A DNA stretch of 64,000 nt from a virus (taxonomy: Duplodnaviria; Heunggongvirae; Uroviricota; Caudoviricetes): IMG/VR virus record IMGVR_UViG_2908567220_000002, positions 33,901 to 97,900 of that record; one strand, written 5' to 3'. Below are positions 3,732 through 60,016 of the stretch, piece after piece (within the stretch, counting starts at the first letter, position 1; each line of letters opens with the position of its first letter). The notes beneath the pieces were generated by a model. The model was given only the letters and a program-made list of their open reading frames with translations, did no database searches and was not told the DNA's origin. Position numbers and translations under genes: made by a program.

Positions 3732-4431
3732 AATGGCATGTTTTAGCCTAAAACAACCCCAAAAAAAAGAAAATGAAGACTTTTATTTACCGCCATCTTT
3801 TGATAGCGATTTTAACATTGTCTTTGCAGTAGCTGATGGGGTTGGTTCCTCTGAACATTCAATGCTTGCATCTCATGCAGCCATTCGTGGCATTAGACAC
3901 ACGCTAGGCACTTCCTTTTTCTCAATTGAAAGTGCATTTCATTCAGCTAAAAAAGAAATTGACAATTTAGATATTAGCACTGCCACAACCTTAACAATTG
4001 TTCAGATCAAAAAAAATGAAGTGTTAATTGGTCATTCCGGTGATTGCCGAGTATACTTCAATAAAAACAACAAACTAAATCAGTTAACCACTGATCAAAC
4101 GAGATATCAAGAACTCCTTGATTCTGGTGAACATAAATTACGTAATTTAAGAAATCATAAAGAACGGCTATCTTCAGTCCTAACGAATGCTTTATCAAAT
4201 ACAACGGATTTGAATTTTGAGTTAATGTCTTTTCCGATTAGCCAGCTAATTTATAATGGCTATCTTCAACTCTATGCAATGACTGATGGTGCCTATAAGC
4301 ATTGGGATGTCAGACCAAGGTTTTCTGAGAAGACAATGCTCTCACCAACAGCTTTTGCGAGTAGTTTAAGAAAAAGGATTGAGAAAAACATAATGGATGA
4401 TTACACTTTTATAGGCGTAAAAGTAACCTAA
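3715..4431 (+). CDS. PP2C (PPM) family Ser/Thr phosphatase
   Basis: 238 aa; NEDFY, VADGVGS, GHSGDCRVY, MTDGAY motifs; overlaps kinase gene by 17 nt. Confidence 0.85.
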   Translation: MKNIIEMACFSLKQPQKKENEDFYLPPSFDSDFNIVFAVADGVGSSEHSMLASHAAIRGIRHTLGTSFFSIESAFHSAKKEIDNLDISTATTLTIVQIKKNEVLIGHSGDCRVYFNKNNKLNQLTTDQTRYQELLDSGEHKLRNLRNHKERLSSVLTNALSNTTDLNFELMSFPISQLIYNGYLQLYAMTDGAYKHWDVRPRFSEKTMLSPTAFASSLRKRIEKNIMDDYTFIGVKVT

Positions 4432-4584
4432 TTTTAGATATCCAAGATATTTACTCTAATTTAACCATAGTATTCCCAACCTCTTTTTATTGGGGGTTGG
4501 GTTCATTAAAGTCACCATTTTCTATTTCTTTCCCGTTAGAGGATATATTATTTCCAGATAAAGAAAGCAACTTCTTATGCAACT

Positions 4585-6007: not shown

Positions 6008-6488
6008 TGGTTGCCTCCTTCACAAAAATAATCCAATGTGTTTTATCGTTCTTGCCGGTGCGCTGGCTGATGATTGGTTTCGCGTCGGTTAGTGCCAATA
6101 TCTGGCGGACAGGCACTTGCGTTTCATTCCATTTAAAAATCAGAATGCCGTGTGGCCACAACACACGAAAGGCTTCTTTAAATCCCTGCCTCAAATCATC
6201 ACGCCAGGTATCTTTATTCAGCCGCCCATATTTCTTTCCCATCCAGGCGTTATCACCAACACGCTCAAGATGCGGAGGGTCGAATACAACAACCGGAAAC
6301 GATGCGTCTGCAAATGGTAATGCACGAAAATCTGCTATCAGGTCAGGGCTAATTATCAGTCGTCGTCCATCACATAATGTGTGCTCTTCCTTTCTGATAT
6401 CGCTAAATATCGCCCGGTCGTCATTCTTATCGAACCAGAACATGCGGCTGCCACAGCACATATCAAGAATGGTTGCCGGTGCACTCAC
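5994..6488 (-). CDS. Putative small SAM-dependent methyltransferase (DPPH motif)
   Basis: 164 aa; LDMCCGS (motif I-like) and VVFDPPH (motif IV-like). Confidence 0.55.
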   Translation of the reverse strand: MSAPATILDMCCGSRMFWFDKNDDRAIFSDIRKEEHTLCDGRRLIISPDLIADFRALPFADASFPVVVFDPPHLERVGDNAWMGKKYGRLNKDTWRDDLRQGFKEAFRVLWPHGILIFKWNETQVPVRQILALTDAKPIISQRTGKNDKTHWIIFVKEATSEQD

Positions 6489-6907
6489 TGCGCTACCTCC
6501 TGAAAATTACCCTGATAAAACGACAATATGCGCTGCATAACTTCGCTCTTCCGGCACTCACAGCAAATTATATTTTGGTGCCTGTCATAACGACGTATTT
6601 CTCCGTCTGGTAATGACCAGATAAGATCCGGATCAGCCACAGATGCTTTCTTCACTTTCGCCCTCGAGAGTTTTTTGCGGGCGTTTTGCCAGTCCTTACG
6701 CGCCTGCTCAGACGGGAATAACCCGTAACCAGAGTTGTATACATCGCCGCTGGCAACCAGCTCTCTTGCGAGAACGCTCATCAGATATCTTGTCGCACCT
6801 GTCTTGACTTCCAGTTGCCGTAACGTCTCACGCCCACTCTGGCGTACGAGTTCAACAACCTGTCCTTTAATTTTTTCCCGCTCTTCTTGTGTAAAAACTT
6901 TTGCCAC
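6485..6907 (-). CDS. Hypothetical protein conserved downstream of replication genes in both prophages
   Basis: 140 aa MAKVFTQEEREKIKGQVVELVRQSGRETL...; paralog at 53896..54318. Confidence 0.6.
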   Translation of the reverse strand: MAKVFTQEEREKIKGQVVELVRQSGRETLRQLEVKTGATRYLMSVLARELVASGDVYNSGYGLFPSEQARKDWQNARKKLSRAKVKKASVADPDLIWSLPDGEIRRYDRHQNIICCECRKSEVMQRILSFYQGNFQEVAQ

Positions 6908-9716: not shown

Positions 9717-9863
9717 ATGAACGAAACAGAATTAAAACACGTTATCGCTCTGCTTCTGGAGGATGCAAAACGCCTCCAGCAACTGGAACCAAATGCAGGC
9801 ACTGAAGCCCGCATCTGGCTGGCATTGTACGCTATTGAGTCAGGTCGTGATGATGAAGGTTAA
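9717..9863 (+). CDS. YdfB-like small protein (tentative)
   Basis: 48 aa MNETELKHVIALLLEDAKRLQQLEPNAGTEARIWLALYAIESGRDDEG; hand-translated, below track cutoff. Confidence 0.55.
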   Translation: MNETELKHVIALLLEDAKRLQQLEPNAGTEARIWLALYAIESGRDDEG

Positions 9864-10144
9864 GCATCATCTAAGTTTTTTACATAGCGCCCATTAGATT
9901 CGGTAACAAGAACACCGGGATTTTTCTTAACTTTTGAGGCCACTGATTCAGCAAGGTCAGCAACAGATTCTTTGTCTTCATTCTTGCTTGAATATATATA
10001 TTCGGCATTAGGAAGACGGTAGGTGTTCCCTAAAGAGGTTGTAATCGTTCTGGAGAATCCCTTTGCTTCCATTCGTTCATGAAGCTTATCGTAATCAGCG
10101 GAACTGGAATCGCGAAGTTCGATCCTGACTGTAAATTTTGCCAT
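9860..10144 (-). CDS. Hypothetical protein encoded antisense to the early-left operon
   Basis: Start MAKFTVRIELRD with GGAGGA SD 4 nt upstream. Confidence 0.5.
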   Translation of the reverse strand: MAKFTVRIELRDSSSADYDKLHERMEAKGFSRTITTSLGNTYRLPNAEYIYSSKNEDKESVADLAESVASKVKKNPGVLVTESNGRYVKNLDDA

Positions 10145-10159
10145 TTTATCCTCCATTTA

Positions 10160-10455
10160 GGTTCTGGGTTAGAAATGGAGACCAATACGGGGCTACGTGT
10201 GGTCGTGCGCCGGACACGGATAAGAATCCGGCACTGACAGTTTACTGAAAGGATATTTCCCTGAAAAGTCAGGGCATAACACGAAAGCGTACGGCGAAGG
10301 CCTTCACCTATGAGGCTTGTCGTTAATTTCTTCGACCGTGCGCTTCCGGTTGTGGCACTCCGCGAAATGGCGCGGCGGTAAGTATGGCGGGGTTATTCCT
10401 TCCCCCGTTGAGGACACCGGGTTGTCAGGTTGACCATACGCTTAAGTGACAACCC
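10160..10455 (+). other. Conserved non-coding element (also upstream of DicF in prophage B at 59100-59410)
   Basis: ~290 bp highly similar between prophages with small indels, no conserved ORF; inverted repeats GGGTTGTCA / TGACAACCC. Confidence 0.5.
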
Positions 10456-10504
10456 CGCCATAACTCATACTGCTATAGATATATGGGGACTAACCGGAGG
10501 AAAA

Positions 10505-10726
10505 ATGATAGTTCAATGCACAGACGGGAATAATAAGCTGCTCTGGTCATACGATACCGTCAGCCAGAAACACATAATGAATATGACTTTTATAAAGGAC
10601 GGTACTCAACAAAAAATCATTACCGCCCTTGCAAGTGCATTAACTCAGGCGACAAGCCAAATTCTGCTATCTGATAACGTTAATGGAGTATCTGATATTG
10701 GCTCGATGACCGGGAGGGAGTGCTAA
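10505..10726 (+). CDS. Small hypothetical protein (73 aa)
   Basis: GGAGG SD 5 nt before ATG; MIVQCTDGNNKLLWSYDTVSQKH...; lies in the segment that replaces DicF. Confidence 0.4.
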   Translation: MIVQCTDGNNKLLWSYDTVSQKHIMNMTFIKDGTQQKIITALASALTQATSQILLSDNVNGVSDIGSMTGREC

Positions 10727-10930
10727 TACAACATTCCAGTAACCCGAGTGGGGCACGGTAATATTGGCAGGGAATCGTTCATAGAAACCGCCGTAATAGG
10801 TAAAACGCCCGCCCCGCTTGAAAGCCTGGTAATTTGAATCATCCATTAATAAAACATTAATCTGGTGTGAACATTGAACCCTGACAAGGTCACCATCATT
10901 CATGTGTTCACGACTATGTATATGGGACAT
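10667..10930 (-). CDS. Small hypothetical protein (88 aa), convergent with and overlapping the preceding ORF by 60 nt
   Basis: AGGAG SD then ATG; MSHIHSREHMNDGDLVRVQCSHQINVLLMDDSNYQAFKRGGRFTYYGG... Confidence 0.5.
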   Translation of the reverse strand: MSHIHSREHMNDGDLVRVQCSHQINVLLMDDSNYQAFKRGGRFTYYGGFYERFPANITVPHSGYWNVVLALPPGHRANIRYSINVIR

Positions 10931-11456
10931 AAACACTCCTTTTTACTGTGGAAAGCTAAATCATATCACGGTCTATGAAGTAAAAAGTGAATTTCGTGAT
11001 GCGGTGAATGCGGCTCAGCGCACGCAGAACAGTTAAAAACACAAGTGTTATGGGTGAATCATCCGGCGTTAATTGCTAACTGGTTAACGTCACCTGGAGG
11101 CACCAGGCACCGCATCACAAAGTTCACTTAGGTGATGAAAGGTAGAGAAAATGTTGAATGTAGCTATTGAAAACCAGAACGGGTGGAATTATAGTGCACC
11201 TGCACCTCATAAAACGGGTGCCGGGCGTGGAAACCCGATGTTCACTAACGCGCATAACCGCGCTCAGGCGGTTTTTTTATGCGTAATGCACAGCCACATT
11301 CAGATTATGGTGGGACGTGCAGGGCAGCCGCAAGGCTGGCCGGGTTCGTTAGTGACCGGTATTTCCACCCCTGTACGTCTCACCACCCTTATGGTCGTGG
11401 AAAACCTTGGTGGTGAGTTAATCAAATTCACTAACGAGGCTGCTATCATGGCTACT

Positions 11457-12002
11457 ATCCCTACCCTTTCTCAACCTGACGTAACCATCGAAAATGGTCG
11501 CGCTGTCACTACGTCTGTTGCGATCGCCGAGTTCTTTGGCAAACGCCACGACAATGTTATTCAAAAAATAAAATTACTGGATTGCTCCCCTGAATTCACT
11601 GCCCTTAATTTTAAGGTGAGCGAATACACCGACTCAACCGGGCGCAAACTCCCTATGTACCAAATCACCAAAAACGGCTTCGTTTTCCTGGTGATGGGCT
11701 TCACGGGCAAAAAAGCCGCAGCTTTCAAGGAAGCCTACATCGCTGAATTCGATCGCATGGAGGCAGAGTTGTACCAGCTTAATACCACTACCACAGACAA
11801 AATAATTCCTGGTGATGGTCGCACTCTCGTTGTTCACTTCGACGAACGCGGCAATATCAAATTCACCGAAACCGTTCCTGACGGCGCTCTCGTCTGTACT
11901 CTGGATACTTTCCGCTTTTATCTGGAGAAGCAGGGGTGGACTCTTGTAAACAGGAGCGCAATTAAAAATATGACCGTCGAGCAGTTGCTGAGTATTAAAT
12001 AG
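11457..12002 (+). CDS. Rha-family phage regulatory protein (antirepressor-like)
   Basis: Start MATIPTLSQPDVTIENGRAVTTSVAIAEFFGKRHDNVIQKI matches Rha N-terminal domain; tracked ORF 11151..12002 extends upstream. Confidence 0.65.
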   Translation: MPTLSQPDVTIENGRAVTTSVAIAEFFGKRHDNVIQKIKLLDCSPEFTALNFKVSEYTDSTGRKLPMYQITKNGFVFLVMGFTGKKAAAFKEAYIAEFDRMEAELYQLNTTTTDKIIPGDGRTLVVHFDERGNIKFTETVPDGALVCTLDTFRFYLEKQGWTLVNRSAIKNMTVEQLLSIK

Positions 12003-12387: not shown

Positions 12388-14826
12388 TTGATGAGCACGA
12401 ATAAAGAAGTGTTTGCGCTATATTGCGAAGCTAAAAATGACAAGGTCAGAAAGCGTCTCGGTATTAAAGGTGGCTTTTTCTGGATCGAAGCCAAAAAACT
12501 TTCCGTTGCAGTTTCCCGCTGTATTGCCGCTATGGACGATGCTGGCTACGACGAAGATGATTTCAAAAAAACAGTTCGCGTCCATTTGCCTGTTCTAAAT
12601 GACCTGCCACCTGAAGGCGTATTTGATACTGATTTCTGTAACCGTTACGAAAAAGGTGGAGAAGATGGCATCACAATGATGCCGGTACCGTCCAGCAACA
12701 GCGATGAAAACAGTAACGCCGCTAATACTAACGTCAACGGCGAAGACATGATTGAGATTGAGGAGAATATTCTTCTGCCGGTTTCAGGTCAGCTTCTGCC
12801 TGTTAGATGGCTGGCACAGCACGGCAGCGAAAAACCTGTCACGCATGTTTCACGGGATGAACTGCGGGCATTACATAACGCACAGGAAGAAAAACTTCCC
12901 GCCGTTACCGCTCTGGCCATCTCAAATAAAGCAGTGCAACTCGAACCGCTGGAGATTCGGGATTTGTACAAACTGGTGCGGGACACTGACAAAGTTTTTC
13001 CCGCCCCCGTAAATTCAGACCTGGGACTGATGACTTCCTTCATCGAAGCATACCTGGACGCTGACTACACCAATCGCGATCTGCTTACAAAAGAGTGGAT
13101 GAAAGGAAATCATGTTTCGCGAATCAGCCGCACACCATCCGGCGCTAACGCTGGCGGCGGTATTCTTACCGATCGCGGCGAAGGTTTTGTACACGATGAT
13201 GCATCACTGGCGCGCGACGTAGCCACTGGCGTGCTGGCCCGTTCAATGGACGTGGACATTTATAACCTTCATCCGGCACACGCTAAACGCGTCGAGGAAA
13301 TTATCGCTGAAAATAAACCGCCCTTTTCTGTTTTCTTCAGCAAATTCATCACCATGCCGGGCCACAAGGATTTCTCCCGTGCCATCGTGGTTGCCTCCGT
13401 GAAAGAATCACCAGTTGGTATAGAGGCTATGCCCCACCGTGTCACCGAATACCTGAATAAAGTGCTGACTGAAACCGATCATGCCAACCCTGATCCGGAA
13501 ATCGTGGATATTGCCTGCGGTCGCTCCTCTGCCCCGATGCCGCAGCGTGTAACTGAAAAAGAAAAACATGATGAAGAAAAACCGCAACCATCTGGCGCAA
13601 TGGCAGATGAACAGGCAACGGCTGAAACAGTGGAACCGGATGCAACTGAACATCATCCGGACACGCAGCCGGTGGATGCTCAGCCACAGGTGAATTCTGT
13701 TGATGCGAAATATCAGAAACTGCGGGCAGAACTCCATGAAGCTAGGAAAAACATTTCGCCTAAAAATCCTGTCGACGCAAACAAATTACTGGCAGCCTCT
13801 CGCGGAGAATTTGTTGAAGGGATTAGTGACCCGAATGATCCGAAATGGGTTAAGGGGCTCCAGACTCGCGAGTCTTCGAACCAGAATCAACCAGAAGTGG
13901 AACAAACCAAGCCAGAATCGGGACAAAATAGCCAGGATGCACACCAAAATGAACCAAAAACGATACATCCGGAGCCAGCAGCGCAACATGCACAGAAAAA
14001 TCCCTGTAATGTTTGTGGGGAAACTGGCGGGGGCACATGCCCTGACTGTGCCTCAGTAATGGGTGACGCAACTTACCATGAGACATTCTGCGAGGAAGAT
14101 TCAGATGAATCTCAGGAAAAAGCTCCGGAGGAGATGGAAAACCCTGAACATCCGCATCCGGAAAATACTGACAGCAATCAGCATAACAATAGCGGTGATA
14201 AAACTGACAGGACGACAAATTCCTTAATTAATATGCACGGTCATCAGAAAAGAACATCCACCAGCAGAATGTGTCACCATCTGATGATCGACCTTGAAAC
14301 AATGGGAAAAAATCCTGATTCCCCGATTATCTCAATAGGTGCAATATTTTTCGATCCGCAAACCGGAGAGATGGGACCAGAATTTAATAAAACCATCGAT
14401 CTGGAAACTGCTGGCGGAGTCATTGATCGGGACGCGATCAAGTGGTGGCTGAAGCAATCACGCGAAGCGCAATCTGCCATTCTGACCGATGAAATCCCGT
14501 TAGATGATGCACTGCTGCAATTGCGGGAATTTATCGCCGAAAACTCCGGTGAATTGTTTGTTCAGGTCTGGGGAAATGGAGCCAACTTCGACAACGTGAT
14601 TTTGCGCCGTTCATATGAACGGCAGGGTATCCCCTGCCCGTGGCGCTACTACAACGATCGCGATGTACGCACAATCATTGAACTGGGAAAATCCATAGAC
14701 TTCGATGCCAGGACGCCTATTCAATTCGAAGGCATACGCCACAATGCGCTGGATGATGCCCGTCACCAGGCGAAATACGTTTCAGCAATCTGGCAAAAAC
14801 TGATCCCGAATCAGTCTGATTTTTAA
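12388..14826 (+). CDS. Large early-left protein with C-terminal DEDDh (DnaQ-like) 3-prime-5-prime exonuclease domain; exodeoxyribonuclease VIII-like position
   Basis: 812 aa; C-terminal [25 protein letters not shown] motifs; [15 protein letters not shown] zinc-ribbon-like motif; C-terminal ~190 aa identical to B's 60109..62580. Confidence 0.7.
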
Positions 14827-14889
14827 TGTTCAACCCCAGTCGTCGCCCCCAGCTATAGTGGCGGCGACCATGATTAGCGAACGATACTC

Positions 14890-15138
14890 ATGGCAAGACT
14901 TATTCTGCTCACTGAGTGGGCAAAAGAGGAATTCAGCGATCCGGTCCCTACTCCGGGCACGTTAAGTAAATACGCTAAAGCCGGAATGATATTTCCTCTC
15001 CCCAAAAAAGTTGGAAGACACTGGCGAGTGGATCCGCGAGCTCGCTTTGTCGGAATGGTAAACAAGCCGGAGGTGATCGCCACAGATCACCCTGCTTTAA
15101 AGAGGATACTGGAAGATGGCACGCCCGCGAAAATATAA
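14890..15138 (+). CDS. xis: Excisionase-like protein
   Basis: 82 aa immediately upstream of and overlapping int; identical copy at 62644..62892. Confidence 0.65.
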   Translation: MARLILLTEWAKEEFSDPVPTPGTLSKYAKAGMIFPLPKKVGRHWRVDPRARFVGMVNKPEVIATDHPALKRILEDGTPAKI

Positions 15139-16246
15139 AACCGCTGTTCCGGGATTATCTCCGTATTTTGACAAAAGAAATAACAAAGTTTACTGGCGTT
15201 ACAGGCATCCCATCACAGGTAAAAATCATGGACTCGGCAGTATTGACCAGAAACTGGCGGAAACCATTGCAGCAGAAGCGAACAGCCGTCTTGCCAGACA
15301 ACAAATGGAGCAAATGCTCAGTCTGCAGGAGAAAATTATTAGTGATACCGGCGGCGCATCAACCGTTTCCATTTTTCTGAATAATTACAGAAAAATTCAA
15401 CAGGAAAGATATGAGAACGGAGAGATCAAACTCAGCACGCTGAAGCAAAAAGCGGCTCCTCTCAGGGTGTTTGATGAACGTTTTGGAGCCAGGCCGCTAG
15501 ATGCCATAACAGTAAAAGATGTGGTATCGGTGCTGGAAGAATACAAGGCAAAGGGACATAACAGAATGGGACAAATTTTCAGGAAGGTATTGATCGATGT
15601 TTTCCGGGAGGCTCAACAAACGGGTGATGTCCCGCCAGGCTTTAACCCGGCTGAATCGGCAAAAAAACCGCAAGTGCGGATATCAAGACAGCGACTGACT
15701 TTTGATGAGTGGATGATGATTTATAACGCAGCGGAAAAGGATGGTTACTTTTTACAGCGCGGCATGCTGCTGGCACTGATGACGGGCCAGCGTCTTTCGG
15801 ATATTTGCAAAATGCAGTTTTCGGATATCCGGGATGGTTACCTTCATGTCGAACAGCAAAAAACAGGAGCCCGGATAGCCATTCCTCTGGCTCTGCGTTG
15901 CGACAAATTAAATCTTACCCTGGGTGACGTGGTGTCATCCTGTCGTGATTACATCCTTAGTCCGTGGTTATTGCACCATCATCACGCTAAGGGGATGGGT
16001 AAGCGCGGCGGGATGGTTAAACCAGCAACGTTAACAGTCGCATTTAAAAAAGCCCGGGATTCTGTGGATTACAACTGGCGTGCTAATGGCACGCCACCCT
16101 CTTTCCATGAGCAAAGATCTTTATCAGAACGATTGTTCAGAGAACAGGGAATTGATACCAAAATTTTGCTGGGCCATTCGAATCAAAAAATGACCGATGT
16201 TTACAACGATGCACGCGGTAAGGAGTGGAAAAAACTGGTCATTTGA
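15116..16246 (+). CDS. int: Tyrosine-type phage integrase
   Basis: 376 aa; terminal gene next to att region; intact version of B's disrupted copy. Confidence 0.9.
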   Translation: MARPRKYKTAVPGLSPYFDKRNNKVYWRYRHPITGKNHGLGSIDQKLAETIAAEANSRLARQQMEQMLSLQEKIISDTGGASTVSIFLNNYRKIQQERYENGEIKLSTLKQKAAPLRVFDERFGARPLDAITVKDVVSVLEEYKAKGHNRMGQIFRKVLIDVFREAQQTGDVPPGFNPAESAKKPQVRISRQRLTFDEWMMIYNAAEKDGYFLQRGMLLALMTGQRLSDICKMQFSDIRDGYLHVEQQKTGARIAIPLALRCDKLNLTLGDVVSSCRDYILSPWLLHHHHAKGMGKRGGMVKPATLTVAFKKARDSVDYNWRANGTPPSFHEQRSLSERLFREQGIDTKILLGHSNQKMTDVYNDARGKEWKKLVI

Positions 16247-33738: not shown

Positions 33739-34092
33739 TCAGCGGCGACGGTTAACGGCAGGCGGTACGCCCCGTCCAAGCCAGAGATGACAACTTCCGC
33801 CATCATCCGGCGAAACCCGATCTACCCAGAAATTTTCCTCACCGATGGTCAGCGTGTCTCCACGCCGCAGCTGCCGCACCTCATCAGTCCGGACAAACAG
33901 GGACGGGCTGGAGCCTTCAACGCGCACGCCCTGTCCGGCATAGCTGATATTTTCAGGGTCATCAAAAACACCACGTATCACAGCACCGGACTGCTCACCG
34001 GATGTCATGGTGGCTGACGTTCCCATGTACCCGCGTATCGTTTCATCAGCGCGAGCAATGGCAGCATCGAACAGGTTATCGAAATCAGCCAC
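33739..34092 (-). CDS. FII: Head-tail joining protein FII
   Basis: 117 aa; lambda gpFII-like. Confidence 0.9.
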   Translation of the reverse strand: MADFDNLFDAAIARADETIRGYMGTSATMTSGEQSGAVIRGVFDDPENISYAGQGVRVEGSSPSLFVRTDEVRQLRRGDTLTIGEENFWVDRVSPDDGGSCHLWLGRGVPPAVNRRR

Positions 34093-48089: not shown

Positions 48090-48460
48090 TTTTTGACCTG
48101 CTCTTCATGCATTATGGGGTAAATCTTCACCCCCAGACGTCCACCAGATACTGGCTGACCACGAACGATATTGATTTCATCAAACTGCTCATCGTCCATT
48201 AACACTCCCGCATGCGTCAGCGCATCCAGCGGTGCTTTCAGGATATTGTCCAGGTCGCGACGACGCTTATCCGGTGGCTCTGCAATCACCTTTATCGCCA
48301 GCCTTCCGGACAGGCTTAATTTCAGCCGCTGCTGGCGAACAATAAGCGCCACTGCCCGGCGATAACGCTCCCCGGCTTTTGATACAAAATATGTGCTGCC
48401 ACGGCGTCGCCAGTAAGTGTTCACCGTCGGCGGGTAAGGTAAAACCAAATCTATGAGCAT
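48086..48460 (-). CDS. rusA: Holliday junction resolvase RusA
   Basis: 124 aa; paralog of 517..867. Confidence 0.9.
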   Translation of the reverse strand: MLIDLVLPYPPTVNTYWRRRGSTYFVSKAGERYRRAVALIVRQQRLKLSLSGRLAIKVIAEPPDKRRRDLDNILKAPLDALTHAGVLMDDEQFDEINIVRGQPVSGGRLGVKIYPIMHEEQVKK

Positions 48461-48472
48461 CAGTCACCTCTT

Positions 48473-49519
48473 TTACCCAAGCACGCCAGTTGCAAAGGCG
48501 TGATCAAGAAAACGAAAAATTAAATCAACCTGAGAACCATGCTTTTCTTCGAACGCCAGAGGATCCGCATGAAGCTCGTTGTGATGCTCCCGACACAGCG
48601 GTAGCGTGAAAATATCGTGAGATTTTGTCCCCATTCCGCCCTGACCATGACCAATCAGGTGATGGGGATCGTCGGCTGGCTTACCACAACACGCACACGG
48701 CTGTGTCTTCACCCAGCGTGTGTATTTCTCGTTAACCCAGCGGCGACGTTTAGGTCGTTTCATGAAAGATTCCGGAGACTCAGGATCAACGGCAATGCTG
48801 ACCACCGTCTCTTCCTGTGGCGGGTTTTGCTGGTGGGCGTGAGGCAGCGGCGCAAGATTTTTTGTGCGCTGCTTCAGTATGCTGGTGGCGGTCTGCTCTC
48901 CCGGTACGATGTCGCTTTCACGGTACATTGAGCGGATTTTTTCCGCACGCAACCCCAGCGAACGACGTAATACCGCTTCCGGTAGCGCGTCCGCCACCTG
49001 ATTGCGGACCGCCCACCAGGATAATTCAGCCAGAGATAATTCACGCTCCTGCGTACCGCTTATTGCGTGACCGATGACGTCAATCATCCATGCTGACAGG
49101 TTTTGATGAGCAAGTTGCTCGAGTGATTCGGATGTCTGGTCACGCAGCTGGTTGTCGCAGTGCCAGCACAACACCATTGCGCCGGTACCATAACGGTGAA
49201 TAACGGTTTCGCTGTGATGATAATCGCCGTGTGGCCACTGGCAGGATTTAATATTGCGCAACAGCCAGTCAGACAATGCACCAGCACCACCAGCAGCACG
49301 AATTACCCGTGCGTTACTGAAAAACGGCAGCAATGTTTTGTCTTCCACCAGCGGCTGGCGAACGGCAGGAACGACCCCGGACGGCAGATTACGCATGCTT
49401 TTCGGTTCCGGCTCCACCAGTACCCGGGTATTGTGGAATACCGGCATGGATTCACGGCCCGGCTTAACGATCACCAGCCCGAGTTCCGGTACCAGAACAG
49501 GTCGAAGTAATACCCGCAC
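48473..49519 (-). CDS. DUF968-family protein (YdfU-like) with HNH-like motif
   Basis: 348 aa; paralog of 880..1929. Confidence 0.8.
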   Translation of the reverse strand: MRVLLRPVLVPELGLVIVKPGRESMPVFHNTRVLVEPEPKSMRNLPSGVVPAVRQPLVEDKTLLPFFSNARVIRAAGGAGALSDWLLRNIKSCQWPHGDYHHSETVIHRYGTGAMVLCWHCDNQLRDQTSESLEQLAHQNLSAWMIDVIGHAISGTQERELSLAELSWWAVRNQVADALPEAVLRRSLGLRAEKIRSMYRESDIVPGEQTATSILKQRTKNLAPLPHAHQQNPPQEETVVSIAVDPESPESFMKRPKRRRWVNEKYTRWVKTQPCACCGKPADDPHHLIGHGQGGMGTKSHDIFTLPLCREHHNELHADPLAFEEKHGSQVDLIFRFLDHAFATGVLG

Positions 49520-49520
49520 G

Positions 49521-49799
49521 TTACCTCCAGATGCGTTGCTGGAATGTGCGGGACGGACGCGGTGGGCGTTCGGAGTAAGGAAGCCTGACGGAGATTATCC
49601 AGTGACGATAATCGAGGCTGAGGGCTTTCTTAATCTCGTATCCGTGTCTGCGGTAGCACTGAATTAGCCACTCGGCCTGTTCTTCAGTGCATGGGGGATG
49701 CTGGAACCAGTCAGATTTGAAAGTGCGGGAACGCCGCCCGTGCCTGCTGGCAAAGACGGCAGAATCATCAGAATTGTGTAATTTGGTATCGTGCGCCAT
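49521..49799 (-). CDS. Hypothetical protein (rem position)
   Basis: 92 aa; paralog of 1931..2203. Confidence 0.55.
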   Translation of the reverse strand: MAHDTKLHNSDDSAVFASRHGRRSRTFKSDWFQHPPCTEEQAEWLIQCYRRHGYEIKKALSLDYRHWIISVRLPYSERPPRPSRTFQQRIWR

Positions 49800-49858
49800 C
49801 GGTTGTCTCTGCTGGCGCAGCAGGTGCCAGTTGTTCAGGCTGGCTCACGTATTATAAC

Positions 49859-52089: not shown

Positions 52090-52245
52090 TTACTCCTCAG
52101 GTTCGTAAGCTGTGAAGACAGCGACCTCCGTCTGCCCGGTTCGGATTCGTACCTCGCAGAGGTCTTTCCTCGTTACCAGTGCCGTCACTATGACGGTTAA
52201 ACAGATGACGATCAGGGCGATTAGCATCGCCTTTTGCTGCTTCAT
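52090..52245 (-). CDS. hok: Hok/Gef family type I toxin
   Basis: 51 aa MKQQKAMLIALIVICLTVIVTALVTRKDLCEVRIRTGQTEVAVFTAYEPEE. Confidence 0.9.
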   Translation of the reverse strand: MKQQKAMLIALIVICLTVIVTALVTRKDLCEVRIRTGQTEVAVFTAYEPEE

Positions 52246-52456
52246 AGCCTGCTTCTCCTTGCCTTTCGGCACGTAAGAGGCTAACCTACGTGTGTAGAGC
52301 ATAGATATGGCCTCAGATTAATGTTAAGCGTCTTGCCGGACGCGTAATGTTAACTGGGGCTTTTCTCTATCTGCCTTTTGGTGTTCATGCCTGAGACAGA
52401 TAGCCTCAAGCACCCGCTGCAATTCTACTTAACTCTCCTTTTCCCGCAAACCGTTT

Positions 52457-58503: not shown

Positions 58504-58824
58504 ATGGAATTTAAAGATTTACCAGTACCATTCCAGGAAATGGCATCGAATGTGGTTCGCTCTCAACTGGCGACTCTTGACCTGAGTACCGTAGAAAAAG
58601 AAACCATCGACAATATATCCGGTAACGTACGCCGAGCCTTTATCGGGCTGTACGAAGAGAAGCAGCTCTCTGATAACCAGGATTTACATGAAAAATACTT
58701 CCTGGATCTAATGGACATCATTGATAAGGGGTTTGGCTTGTTAATGAAAAAGAAAGGGATTCGAATAGAACCCCTTGAAAATTACTTTGCAACAAAAAGC
58801 ATTAATTCTTTTGATTCAAAATAA
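58504..58824 (+). CDS. Hypothetical protein (106 aa)
   Basis: Start MEFKDLPVPFQEMASNVV with GAGG SD; replaces the YdfB-like gene of prophage A. Confidence 0.45.
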   Translation: MEFKDLPVPFQEMASNVVRSQLATLDLSTVEKETIDNISGNVRRAFIGLYEEKQLSDNQDLHEKYFLDLMDIIDKGFGLLMKKKGIRIEPLENYFATKSINSFDSK

Positions 58825-59077
58825 GAGAATTAATTACAGACTTAACATGCTCTTTCTCATGATTGAAGCTCTCATGATTGAAAGTGCCGGGTTGAAGCGA
58901 GTCGATATAATCAACAAGACTCTGTCGTACGACTTCATTTTTATCCATAACAGATGCAAGAAATGAAATTGCTAAAAGAGTTATATCACTACGCGCCGCA
59001 GCATGTTGCAATGCTTTATCAAAATTATTAATCTGGCGTATCAGGGAGTTAATGATTTCATCATTTTCAGTCGACAT
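58802..59077 (-). CDS. Hypothetical protein (91 aa) antisense to the early-left operon, convergent with the preceding gene
   Basis: Start MSTENDEIINSLIRQINNFD with AGGAGGG SD; tracked ORF 58802..59290. Confidence 0.45.
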   Translation of the reverse strand: MSTENDEIINSLIRQINNFDKALQHAAARSDITLLAISFLASVMDKNEVVRQSLVDYIDSLQPGTFNHESFNHEKEHVKSVINSLILNQKN

Positions 59078-59411
59078 TTCACCCTCCTGAGGGTTGGTGA
59101 TTAAGGAGTTCTCCACGGGTGAGGTGGAGTGCGTGCGCCGGACACGGGTGAGCATCCGGCACTGACAGTTTACTGAAAGGATATTTCCCTGAAAAGTCAG
59201 ACCATAACGCGAAAGCGCACGGCGAGGTAGCTGGTTCATAGATAGCCTGTCGTTAAATTTTCGTCGACCGTGCGCTTCCGGTTGTGGCAATCCGCGAAAT
59301 GGCGCGGCGGTAAGTATGGCGGGGTTATTCCTTCCCCCGTTGAGGACACCGGGTTGTCAGGTTGACCATACGCTTAAGTGACAACCCCGCTGCAACGCCC
59401 TCTGTTATCAA

Positions 59412-59468
59412 TTTTCTGGTGACGTTTGGCGGTATCAGTTTTACTCCGTGACTGCTCTGCCGCCCTTT
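59412..59468 (+). ncRNA. dicF: DicF small RNA
   Basis: TTTCTGGTGACGTTTGGCGGTATCAGTTTTACTCCGTGACTGCTCTGCCGCCCTTTTT matches DicF as recalled, including terminator hairpin and U-tail. Confidence 0.8.
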
Positions 59469-59639
59469 TTAAAGTGAATTTTGTAATGTGGTGAATGCGG
59501 CTGAGCGCACGCGGAACAGTTAAAACCAAAAACAGTGTTATGGGTGGATTCTCTGTATCCGGCGTTAATTGTTAACTGGTTAACGTCACCTGGAGGCACC
59601 AGGCACCGCATCACAAAATTCATTGTTGAGGACGCGATA

Positions 59640-59828
59640 ATGGAAACGTTATTACCAAACGTTAATACGTCTGAAGGTTGTTTTGAAATTGGTGTCAATA
59701 TCAGTAACCCTGTATTTACTGAAGATGCCATTAACAAGAGAAAACACGAACGGGAGCTATTAAATAAAATATGCATTCTTTCAATGCTGGCCCGTTTACG
59801 TCCGATACAAAAAGGATGCTGGCAATGA
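59640..59828 (+). CDS. dicB: Cell division inhibitor DicB
   Basis: 62 aa METLLPNVNTSEGCFEIGVNISNPVFTEDAINKRKHERELLNKICILSMLARLRPIQKGCWQ. Confidence 0.85.
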   Translation: METLLPNVNTSEGCFEIGVNISNPVFTEDAINKRKHERELLNKICILSMLARLRPIQKGCWQ

Positions 59829-60016
59829 ATACAGCATTTGCACTTGTTCTGACAGTTTTTCTTGTTTCCGGAGAGCCAGTTGATATTGCAGTCAGTGTTC
59901 ACAGGACAATGCAGGAGTGTGTGACTGCAGCAACCGAACAGAAAATTCCCGGTAACTGTTACCCGGTCGATAAAGTTATTCACCAGGATAATAACGAAAT
60001 CCCGGCAGGTCTTTAA
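59825..60016 (+). CDS. ydfD: YdfD-like protein
   Basis: 63 aa MNTAFALVLTVFLVSGEPVDIAVSVHRTMQECVTAATEQKIPGNCYPVDKVIHQDNNEIPAGL; overlaps dicB stop. Confidence 0.8.
   Translation: MNTAFALVLTVFLVSGEPVDIAVSVHRTMQECVTAATEQKIPGNCYPVDKVIHQDNNEIPAGL

Follow-up and report, generated by a model that had tools for sequence, protein, structure and literature searches.

The window analysed here is a stretch of 64,000 nucleotides from a Caudoviricetes record (IMG/VR virus record IMGVR_UViG_2908567220_000002, positions 33,901 to 97,900), which holds two prophages, here called A and B. The subject of this study is a site in their dicBF-type early operon that is occupied in prophage B by DicF, which is a small RNA (sRNA), and in prophage A by a cassette with two small genes that converge and overlap at their 3' ends. 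The gene on the minus strand encodes a protein of the DUF1883 family, and the gene on the plus strand encodes a protein of 73 aa, here called the partner. An earlier reading of the window, made from the letters alone (the sequence-only reading), had pointed out the difference between the two prophages and had likened the gene layout to toxin-antitoxin (TA) loci under antisense regulation. The coordinates of the features are collected in Table 1.

A two-gene cassette in the place of DicF

DicF is a 53-nt, Hfq-dependent sRNA that is processed from the operon transcript. DicA acts as the repressor of the dicBF operon, and the processing of DicF involves RNase III and RNase E. A scan of the window with the Rfam covariance models identified a single DicF match, at 59414-59465 on the plus strand of prophage B (RF00039, 76.7 bits with a gathering score of 48, E = 3.6e-15), which covers the full model from position 1 to 52, and no DicF in prophage A. 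The canonical order of DicF, dicB and ydfD that had been read in prophage B was confirmed, with the DicB gene at 59640-59828 (PF05358, 124.9 bits) and the YdfD/DUF1482 gene at 59825-60016. Prophage A contains a Rha-family gene in place of dicB, as had also been noted, in the form of a 283-aa ORF (open reading frame) with Ash and Rha similarity at 11151-12002.

A comparison of the two halves of the window with each other showed that the sequences on both sides of the site are conserved. The left flank of prophage A is 90.8% identical to 59132-59390 in prophage B, and the right flank is 86.8% identical to 59471-59622, which shifts the boundaries given by the sequence-only reading by a few bases. 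Between the flanks, there are 525 bp in prophage A and 80 bp in prophage B (59391-59470, the DicF segment). The homology of the left flank stops at ...ACAACCCCGC, and the cassette that follows has no similarity to prophage B, nor any similarity to DicF in sequence or by Rfam. Its GC content of 41.5% lies below the 54.5% of the left flank and the 50.2% of the window as a whole, in agreement with the AT-richer segment of about 500 bp described before. The Rfam scan found no antitoxin RNA in 10459-10983. An inverted repeat at the 3' end of the left flank, which had been considered as a leader hairpin at the left junction, was dropped as a feature, since its stability does not exceed that of shuffles (z = -1.2). 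The two ORFs, their ribosome-binding sites and the 60-nt overlap were all recovered as first read, except that the 88 codons of the minus-strand ORF include the stop codon and its product is 87 aa long. DicF is replaced in prophage A by a foreign, AT-richer cassette with two convergent, overlapping small genes.

To see how often this site carries the cassette, the joined flanks were searched against complete genomes of E. coli, and both flanks were present in 3,882 of 5,426 genomes. The spacing between the flanks was essentially always DicF-sized (425-441 nt) in a spread sample of 60 of these two-flank matches, and the spacing expected for the cassette (868 nt) was seen only in E24377A; the count of about 3,880 genomes in the DicF state rests on the two-flank genomes and on this spacing sample. 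The complete cassette is found in eight of the 5,426 genomes, and the Prokaryotic Genome Annotation Pipeline (PGAP) annotates the DUF1883 gene as such in all eight. E24377A and STEC005 are examples of strains that bear it. A diverged allele with 85.7% nucleotide identity is present on two contigs from metagenomes or the Sequence Read Archive (loci L004 and L005), with the same pair and the same 60-nt overlap. On contigs of the L004 type, the partner is 75% identical, converges with DUF1883 over the 60 nt, and the pair is followed by dicB. The cassette is a rare replacement that has since diverged into two alleles, and two states are seen at the DicF site. The proposal of a variable cassette site holds in the sense that the module is mobile and occupies many sites elsewhere, as described below, but not in the sense of a hotspot, as no series of different cassettes has been demonstrated at the DicF site.

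Table 1. Features of the cassette, its flanks and its counterpart in prophage B (positions in the window).
Feature	Coordinates	Strand	Basis
Left flank: leader of the dicBF-type operon, conserved and non-coding	10204..10458	+	90.8% identity to B
Inserted cassette, 525 bp, in the slot of the 80-bp DicF segment of B	10459..10983	.	Flank comparison, GC content
GGAGG ribosome-binding site of the partner gene	10496..10500	+	Sequence reading
Partner gene, 73 aa, same direction as the operon; ATG 10505, TAA 10724-10726	10505..10726	+	phrog_21096, dN/dS, HMM
Overlap of both 3' ends, 60 nt	10667..10726	.	ORF coordinates
DUF1883 gene, 87 aa (88 codons with stop), inverted relative to the operon; ATG 10930-10928, TAG 10669-10667	10667..10930	-	PF08980
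AGGAG ribosome-binding site of the DUF1883 gene	10936..10940	-	Sequence reading
Extended -10-like element TGATATGAT, candidate DUF1883 promoter	10960..10968	-	Consensus match, prediction
Right conserved flank, corresponding to the region 3' of DicF in B	10984..11126	+	86.8% identity to B
DicF sRNA of prophage B, counterpart of the cassette	59414..59465	+	Rfam RF00039

The two protein families and their junction

The product of the minus-strand gene belongs to the DUF1883 family (PF08980, 86.7 bits with a cutoff of 26), with residues 3-87 aligned to positions 3-87 of the 89 positions in the model. The only relative with a solved structure is Atu1913 (PDB 2b1y), a structural genomics target without a function, which matches in a profile comparison (E = 2.8e-9) and shares both the Pfam family and the beta-sandwich fold with the protein in the window. 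The AlphaFold (AF2) model is a confident beta-sandwich with a predicted local distance difference test (pLDDT) score of 91.5, and the small beta-rich domain that the sequence-only reading had expected a Pfam search to reveal is thus DUF1883. The structural neighbours of the model are generic sandwiches, none of which is significant. Relatives with 50-95% identity are numerous across the Enterobacterales. The diverged E. coli allele (L004/L005) differs from the window by 29 substitutions in this gene, 23 of which are located at third codon positions, and the ratio of non-synonymous to synonymous substitution rates (dN/dS) is 0.03. Judged from this substitution pattern, the minus-strand ORF is a genuine gene under purifying selection as a protein.

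The 73-aa partner has no match in Pfam or NCBIfam, and a tblastn search against the GenBank phages gave nothing. It matches phrog_21096, a PHROG of unknown function (E = 1.9e-15), and only three clusters were obtained in a word-indexed search of 5.8 billion proteins. The family was recovered by searching the DNA beside DUF1883 genes. A tblastn search with the 73-aa protein against 28 DUF1883 loci from diverse genomes gave matches on the opposite strand, directly 3' of DUF1883, in Erwinia, Serratia, Atlantibacter, a Klebsiella phage, a Pseudomonas phage and two metagenome-assembled genomes of Acidobacteriota, and ORF extraction identified the core motif also in Bacteroidota, Bdellovibrionota and Armatimonadota. 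The motif consists of an N-terminal strand, an invariant Trp and a helix of the form DGTQQxIIxALxxALxQAxGQ. Similarity among the tails of the partners (NVNGVSDIG...) was discounted, as it reflects the conserved C-terminus of DUF1883 read in antisense, and a hidden Markov model (HMM) was built from the core only, with the tail left out. This HMM identified the partner beside DUF1883 in two loci outside the training set (L015, 9e-11; L017, 1e-8), and none of the other segments among 6,124 six-frame segments fell below E = 1. An exhaustive profile search of 1.84 billion representatives yielded 260 partner clusters at 50% identity (110 at E up to 1e-10), with members mostly 56-95 aa long. Look-ups of the clusters with AT-rich homologs led to metagenomic sequences. 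Longer "fusion" members of the family contain no informative domains and are probably read-through or extended ORFs.

Some of the homologs (P0068, P0070, P0071, P0072 and P0074 from Enterobacter, Gibbsiella, Klebsiella and Citrobacter; 59-69 aa) are labelled "Rrf2 family transcriptional regulator" at NCBI. We rejected this label, for which there is no HMM support and which implies the wrong fold: neither Pfam nor NCBIfam gave any match for the window partner, P0068 or P0071. It is probably a propagated misannotation.

The partner can be divided into a conserved core of residues 1-52 (nt 10505-10660), a predicted helix that extends to residue 59 (nt 10681) and an unconstrained tail of residues 60-73. 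The AF2 model (pLDDT 78.6) contains three strands and a long helix, with a confident core and a disordered tail. No analogue of the fold was found in the PDB and there were no winged-helix neighbours, nor does the model have a helix-turn-helix (HTH), ribbon-helix-helix or AbrB fold. An acidic core is seen in 14 of 15 loci, and the DUF1883 protein is basic in Pseudomonadota.

It could be argued that only DUF1883 is a functional protein, and that the plus-strand ORF is untranslated and has a role at the RNA level, as a 3' untranslated region or as an antisense regulator. The ORF is not annotated by PGAP and most other gene callers, and only 26 clusters at 90% identity are found among the 5.8 billion proteins. 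However, outside the overlap, the partner shows an excess of third-position changes and dN/dS values of 0.32, 0.32, 0.21, 0.14 and 0.26 in five ortholog comparisons, which include several independent pairs, and its start codon and ribosome-binding site are conserved. The confident AF2 core and the 260 clusters also speak against an untranslated ORF. Since the partner is conserved as a protein across phyla in which the DNA cannot be aligned, with dN/dS of 0.14-0.32, a genuine protein-coding gene is strongly indicated, and the RNA-only explanation is scarcely credible. On these grounds, we consider the partner a genuine, conserved and mostly unannotated small-protein family, for which neither Pfam nor NCBIfam has a model. 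The sequence-only reading had left room for ORFs that are not conserved elsewhere and for degenerate non-coding DNA; the pair is instead conserved across phyla, with dN/dS of 0.03 for DUF1883 and 0.14-0.32 for the partner.

The position of the two genes relative to each other is also conserved. Measured from the last position of the partner core to the outer end of the stop codon of DUF1883, the distance ranges from -4 to +7 nt with a median of 0 in 30 copies of the locus (genomes, phages and metagenomes), and from 3 to 9 nt in 77 viral loci from IMG/VR. Such a zero-spacer junction (-4 to +9 nt) is found in five phyla: Pseudomonadota, Acidobacteriota, Bacteroidota, Armatimonadota and Bdellovibrionota. 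The partner stop codon is placed 8-240 nt inside DUF1883, so that the length of the overlap varies, while the junction distance does not. The overlap contains ten substitutions between the two E. coli alleles, all of which are synonymous for DUF1883 and nine of which are non-synonymous for the partner. Even lenient criteria gave no intrinsic terminator behind either gene. Of 80 sampled DUF1883 loci on viral contigs (IMG/VR), 77 contain the partner, as do 16 of 26 bacterial DUF1883 loci; the other ten bacterial loci have DUF1883 without the partner. When sampling started from the partner, all five families examined had a convergent DUF1883 gene, and no partner without DUF1883 was seen. DUF1883 and its partner are a conserved two-gene unit, placed tail to tail without a spacer or terminator.

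In the Klebsiella phage ST13-OXA48phi12.5 (L002), the partner at 4250-4438 on the minus strand is cut short by a premature stop codon and annotated as an ORF of 37 aa, next to an intact DUF1883 gene. This suggests that DUF1883 is tolerated without a full-length partner.

These data also bear on the idea that two functionally unrelated small genes travel together and are packed closely as a result of phage genome compaction. Phage genomes are compact, the overlapping tail of the partner is unconstrained and disordered, and DUF1883 can exist alone, as would be expected for unrelated genes. We nevertheless find this idea highly improbable, because five phyla share a junction of -4 to +9 nt, also in non-phage contexts that are not compact, and because the partner was never seen without DUF1883 in the partner-first sampling. 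Recombination would separate unrelated neighbours over such evolutionary distances.

Genomic contexts, orientation and neighbouring features

The module is found in the DicF slot of Qin/Rac-like prophages of E. coli (the window, L001 and L004), 3' of the tape-measure or minor tail gene, between gpM- and gpL-like tail genes, between Q and holin in Serratia, between the lysis genes and terminase in Enterobacter and Pseudomonas phages, and between gtr-type glycosyltransferase morons, which amounts to at least six different insertion sites in prophages. It is also located in a rex-like position, downstream of a CI-like repressor gene, in non-phage islands beside transposases, integrases or an XRE gene, and on a few plasmids. 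The cassette is a mobile, moron-type module. Known phage morons include bor and lom of lambda, gp15 of HK97, cor of phi80 and N15, and rexAB of lambda, and they are usually single genes with their own terminator. Similar to these, the module is an accessory unit between conserved phage genes that is absent from close relatives, it has a deviant base composition and a promoter-like element, and it is placed at classical positions (after the tape measure, at Q/holin, at lysis/terminase, beside cI and in the gtr region). It differs from them in being a gene pair with a convergent overlap, for which no terminator was found.

The orientation of the module was assessed by clustering the 80 viral loci by their flanking proteins into distinct flank families. 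The gene that flanks the module on the partner side is on the same strand as the partner in 17 of 18 distinct flank families, and 17 of 20 families on the DUF1883 side have a flanking gene that is antisense to DUF1883. The partner runs with the operon, its start often lying 13-46 nt after the preceding gene, and DUF1883 is an inverted gene inside co-directional phage operons. Lambdoid late transcription is well established, and given the gene order in the tail operons it implies that the late genes downstream of the module are reached only by antisense transcription across DUF1883.

The extended -10-like sequence TGnTAnnnT is present about 38-41 nt upstream of the start codon in 24 of 38 unique DUF1883 upstream regions (63%), compared to 8% of shuffled sequences, and in none of 51 partner upstream regions. 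In the window it takes the form TGATATGAT (10968-10960), with the counterparts TGGTATTAT in the diverged allele L004 and TGGTATCTT in Serratia. By its match to the consensus, TGATATGAT is a candidate for the DUF1883 promoter. Another element, GAGGGATGGCTGATTACCTCT, which may serve as an alternative in regulation, is located about 20-60 nt upstream of DUF1883 and is preceded by a GC-rich hairpin in L007-L009, L034-L036 and many IMG/VR loci.

A three-gene version of the module, in which an XRE/HTH_3 gene is placed directly upstream of DUF1883 on the same strand and both converge with the partner, is found in two unrelated lineages, L040/L041 from Pyrinomonadaceae (XRE gene at 6419-6751) and L044/L045 (5458-5778). 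On the 7.4-kb plasmid pA of Aeromonas dhakensis (L126, 6759-7310 on the minus strand), DUF1883 is followed after 3 nt by a co-directional gene for an 81-aa protein, and the plasmid also encodes a RES-family NAD+ phosphorylase toxin. The 81-aa protein was ruled out as a relative of the partner (hhalign probability 0.3%), is unrelated to the MrpA protein discussed below and was not recurrent in DUF1883 loci without a partner.

Other features in the window include a second inverted small gene in prophage A, directly upstream of the DicF leader at 9860-10156 on the minus strand. It encodes 98 aa with similarity to the YmfI family (E = 1.5e-13, below the cutoff) and a weak match to GhoS (E = 8e-4, below the cutoff). 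Prophage B contains an unrelated inverted ORF in this position, at about 58802-59077 on the minus strand. This position joins the DicF site as a variable slot of the operon with inverted content. The 5' third of the Ash+Rha ORF contains Rfam matches to isrK (11202-11278, 65.9 bits) and to the C4 antisense RNA (11303-11390, 80.3 bits), and the Pfam match to Phage_ASH at residues 14-109 of the ORF coincides with these RNAs. The arrangement looks like the c4/ant layout of the P1 immI type; the true start of Rha/Ant may be internal to the ORF, and the Ash "domain" may in part be translated RNA genes. Each prophage also has one sok antitoxin RNA of the hok/sok type, at 2521-2696 and 52240-52415, both on the minus strand (110 and 117 bits). 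Finally, prophages A and B share long blocks of 93-95% identity (13774-16246 with 61528-64000, and 525-2246 with 48119-49842), which include the C-terminus of a RecE-like exonuclease and beyond and thus provide ample homology for recombination between them.

Proposed working of the pair and its alternatives

A full-text search of the functional literature on DUF1883 returned a single study, on MrpA and MrpB in C. difficile (Mehra et al., PLoS Pathog 2025, PMC12694794). MrpA is a protein of 81 aa with no domain and MrpB a DUF1883 protein of 87 aa (CDR20291_1689/1690), and both are needed for the formation of elongated cells that divide asymmetrically, with asymmetric septa (PMC12694794). MinD is bound by MrpA, and pull-downs with MrpB recovered MrpA, MinD and MinC (PMC12694794). 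The cloning primers and a transcript that spans both genes place them in tandem, as a co-transcribed pair (PMC12694794). With the MrpA and MrpB sequences rebuilt from the S8 Table of that study, the DUF1883 protein in the window is 36% identical to MrpB over 87 of 87 aa (E = 3e-20), with an hhalign probability of 99.1%. A comparison of the partner profile with MrpA gave an hhalign probability of 0.2% over 11 aligned columns, and no relation was detected. The two systems have in common a DUF1883 protein of 87 aa and a small, domain-less protein encoded next to it. However, mrpAB is a chromosomal tandem found in C. difficile only, whereas the module studied here is mobile, occurs in several phyla and has its genes in convergent orientation with, in the window, an overlap of 60 nt. 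From lineage to lineage, DUF1883 proteins seem to be joined by different small neighbours, among which the convergent partner is the widespread one.

The similarity to MrpB raises the question of whether DUF1883 and the partner could act together on Min or FtsZ, as a cooperative effector on division or morphology that would be a protein substitute for the ftsZ-targeting DicF. The cassette occupies the same operon, slot and flanks as DicF, in an operon with host-directed products that inhibit division; it sits exactly in the DicF slot of an operon with a Kil-like septation inhibitor (phrog_294), and dicB is present in other hosts of the cassette. Together with the finding that the protein in the window is a full-length homolog of MrpB, and that MrpA and MrpB alter division and bind Min proteins, this makes cooperative action the main rival to the explanation that we prefer. 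Yet the MinD binder is MrpA, to which the partner is not detectably related, and the tandem, co-transcribed arrangement of mrpAB is not that of the window pair. DicF is an sRNA and the cassette is a 525-bp unit of two protein genes, one of which is inverted, and most copies of the module are located in tail, lysis or moron regions, so that the position at DicF may be incidental. With the role of MrpB unsettled as well, we regard joint action of this kind as unlikely on balance.

The TA comparison made by the sequence-only reading did not stand up. In this explanation, the pair is an addiction module regulated through its antisense overlap, with one toxic product that is counteracted by the other as a protein, an antisense RNA or both, and it stabilises the element or aborts infection. 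Type I loci with convergent transcripts that overlap at their 3' ends are exemplified by txpA/RatA and bsrG/SR4 of B. subtilis, in which the toxin is a hydrophobic peptide of small size and one of the strands gives a non-coding RNA. The module resembles such loci in its convergent units, in the overlap of the 3' ends (here an ORF overlap of 60 nt) and in its location on mobile elements or prophages, including sites beside transposases and integrases and on plasmids. As no terminator was found, the two transcripts are also expected to overlap. In addition, the partner is small and acidic and evolves faster than DUF1883, and two unrelated lineages have an XRE gene directly upstream of DUF1883. 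However, the window pair encodes conserved soluble proteins on both strands, and neither of them is a hydrophobic peptide. The features of type II systems are also missing, as the genes are convergent and not a bicistronic operon, the partner has no DNA-binding fold, and no TA family in Pfam matches. A search of PADLOC-DB v2 gave no match for either protein (E up to 0.1) or for their neighbours. DUF1883 is alone in ten of 26 bacterial loci and is accompanied by a truncated partner in the Klebsiella phage, which argues against a constitutively toxic protein that needs an antidote. A TA module is therefore improbable.

The explanation that we prefer, with a probability of roughly 0.45, is that a mobile two-gene moron displaced DicF, with DUF1883 made alone when the operon is silent and antagonised by the partner upon derepression. 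The module would have entered by recombination within the conserved flanks of the dicBF-type early operon. DUF1883 would be an 87-aa cytoplasmic beta-sandwich protein produced from its own upstream promoter-like element, and the partner an acidic 73-aa protein with a strong ribosome-binding site and no promoter of its own, expressed together with the operon. As long as the operon is repressed, in the way that dicBp is repressed by DicA, only DUF1883 would be present and would, as a binding protein, engage a target in the host or the phage. When the operon fires, the partner would be made, while convergent transcription and antisense pairing would shut off the synthesis of DUF1883, and the partner protein would bind to the existing DUF1883 protein and modulate, most likely neutralise, it.

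Several of the observations above point to this working. With no spacer or terminator at the junction, neither transcript would end before entering the opposite gene, and because DUF1883 is inverted within the operon, a transcript that extends to the downstream genes would cross it in antisense. From this geometry we infer, reasonably in our view, an antisense coupling of the two genes. In the excludon, reportedly described in Listeria by Sesto and colleagues in 2013, a long transcript is said to serve as mRNA for one set of genes and as antisense RNA to an oppositely oriented neighbour. Similarly, the phage operon transcript would be antisense across DUF1883 and expression of the two genes would be mutually exclusive. 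Excludons are reportedly defined from the transcriptomes of divergent chromosomal loci, whereas the arrangement in the window is convergent, contained within a 0.5-kb mobile module and known here from the genes alone. At the protein level, pairing is plausible, given the acidic core of the partner, the basic DUF1883 in Pseudomonadota and the pull-down of MrpA by MrpB. By analogy with other genes at moron positions, the module probably has an accessory or conflict function in the lysogenic state.

Some observations weigh against this explanation. In one context, the partner is located downstream of a CI-like repressor gene and would be made in the lysogen, and the non-phage copies beside transposases or XRE genes require a different trigger; these contexts suggest that a simple logic of lysogenic versus lytic state is not the whole story. 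The precedent of MrpAB is cooperative and not antagonistic, with both proteins needed (PMC12694794), and no defence or TA model in PADLOC or Pfam matches either protein. The DUF1883 promoter is predicted solely by agreement with a consensus, and TGnTAnnnT is missing from another large class of DUF1883 upstream regions, which has the conserved element GAGGGATGGCTGATTACCTCT instead.

A bolder reading is that the pair is an unrecognised and widespread two-protein switch. The convergent overlap without a spacer would make expression of the two genes mutually exclusive at the RNA level. In prophages, the switch would read whether the operon is repressed or induced and would control an MrpB-like effector acting on division or the envelope of the host, and in prophage A it would take over the task of DicF. 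We consider this reading unlikely.

The analysis adds a real and largely unannotated family of small proteins (260 clusters), and many DUF1883 genes turn out to be one half of a fixed two-gene unit. A convergent junction held within a few nucleotides across five phyla is unusual, and provides a natural test system for 3'-overlapping convergent transcription as a selected regulatory device. In E. coli, the module replaces a well-studied sRNA that acts on division and metabolism, and the homology of its DUF1883 protein to MrpB offers a testable hypothesis on what a prophage may gain from this replacement.

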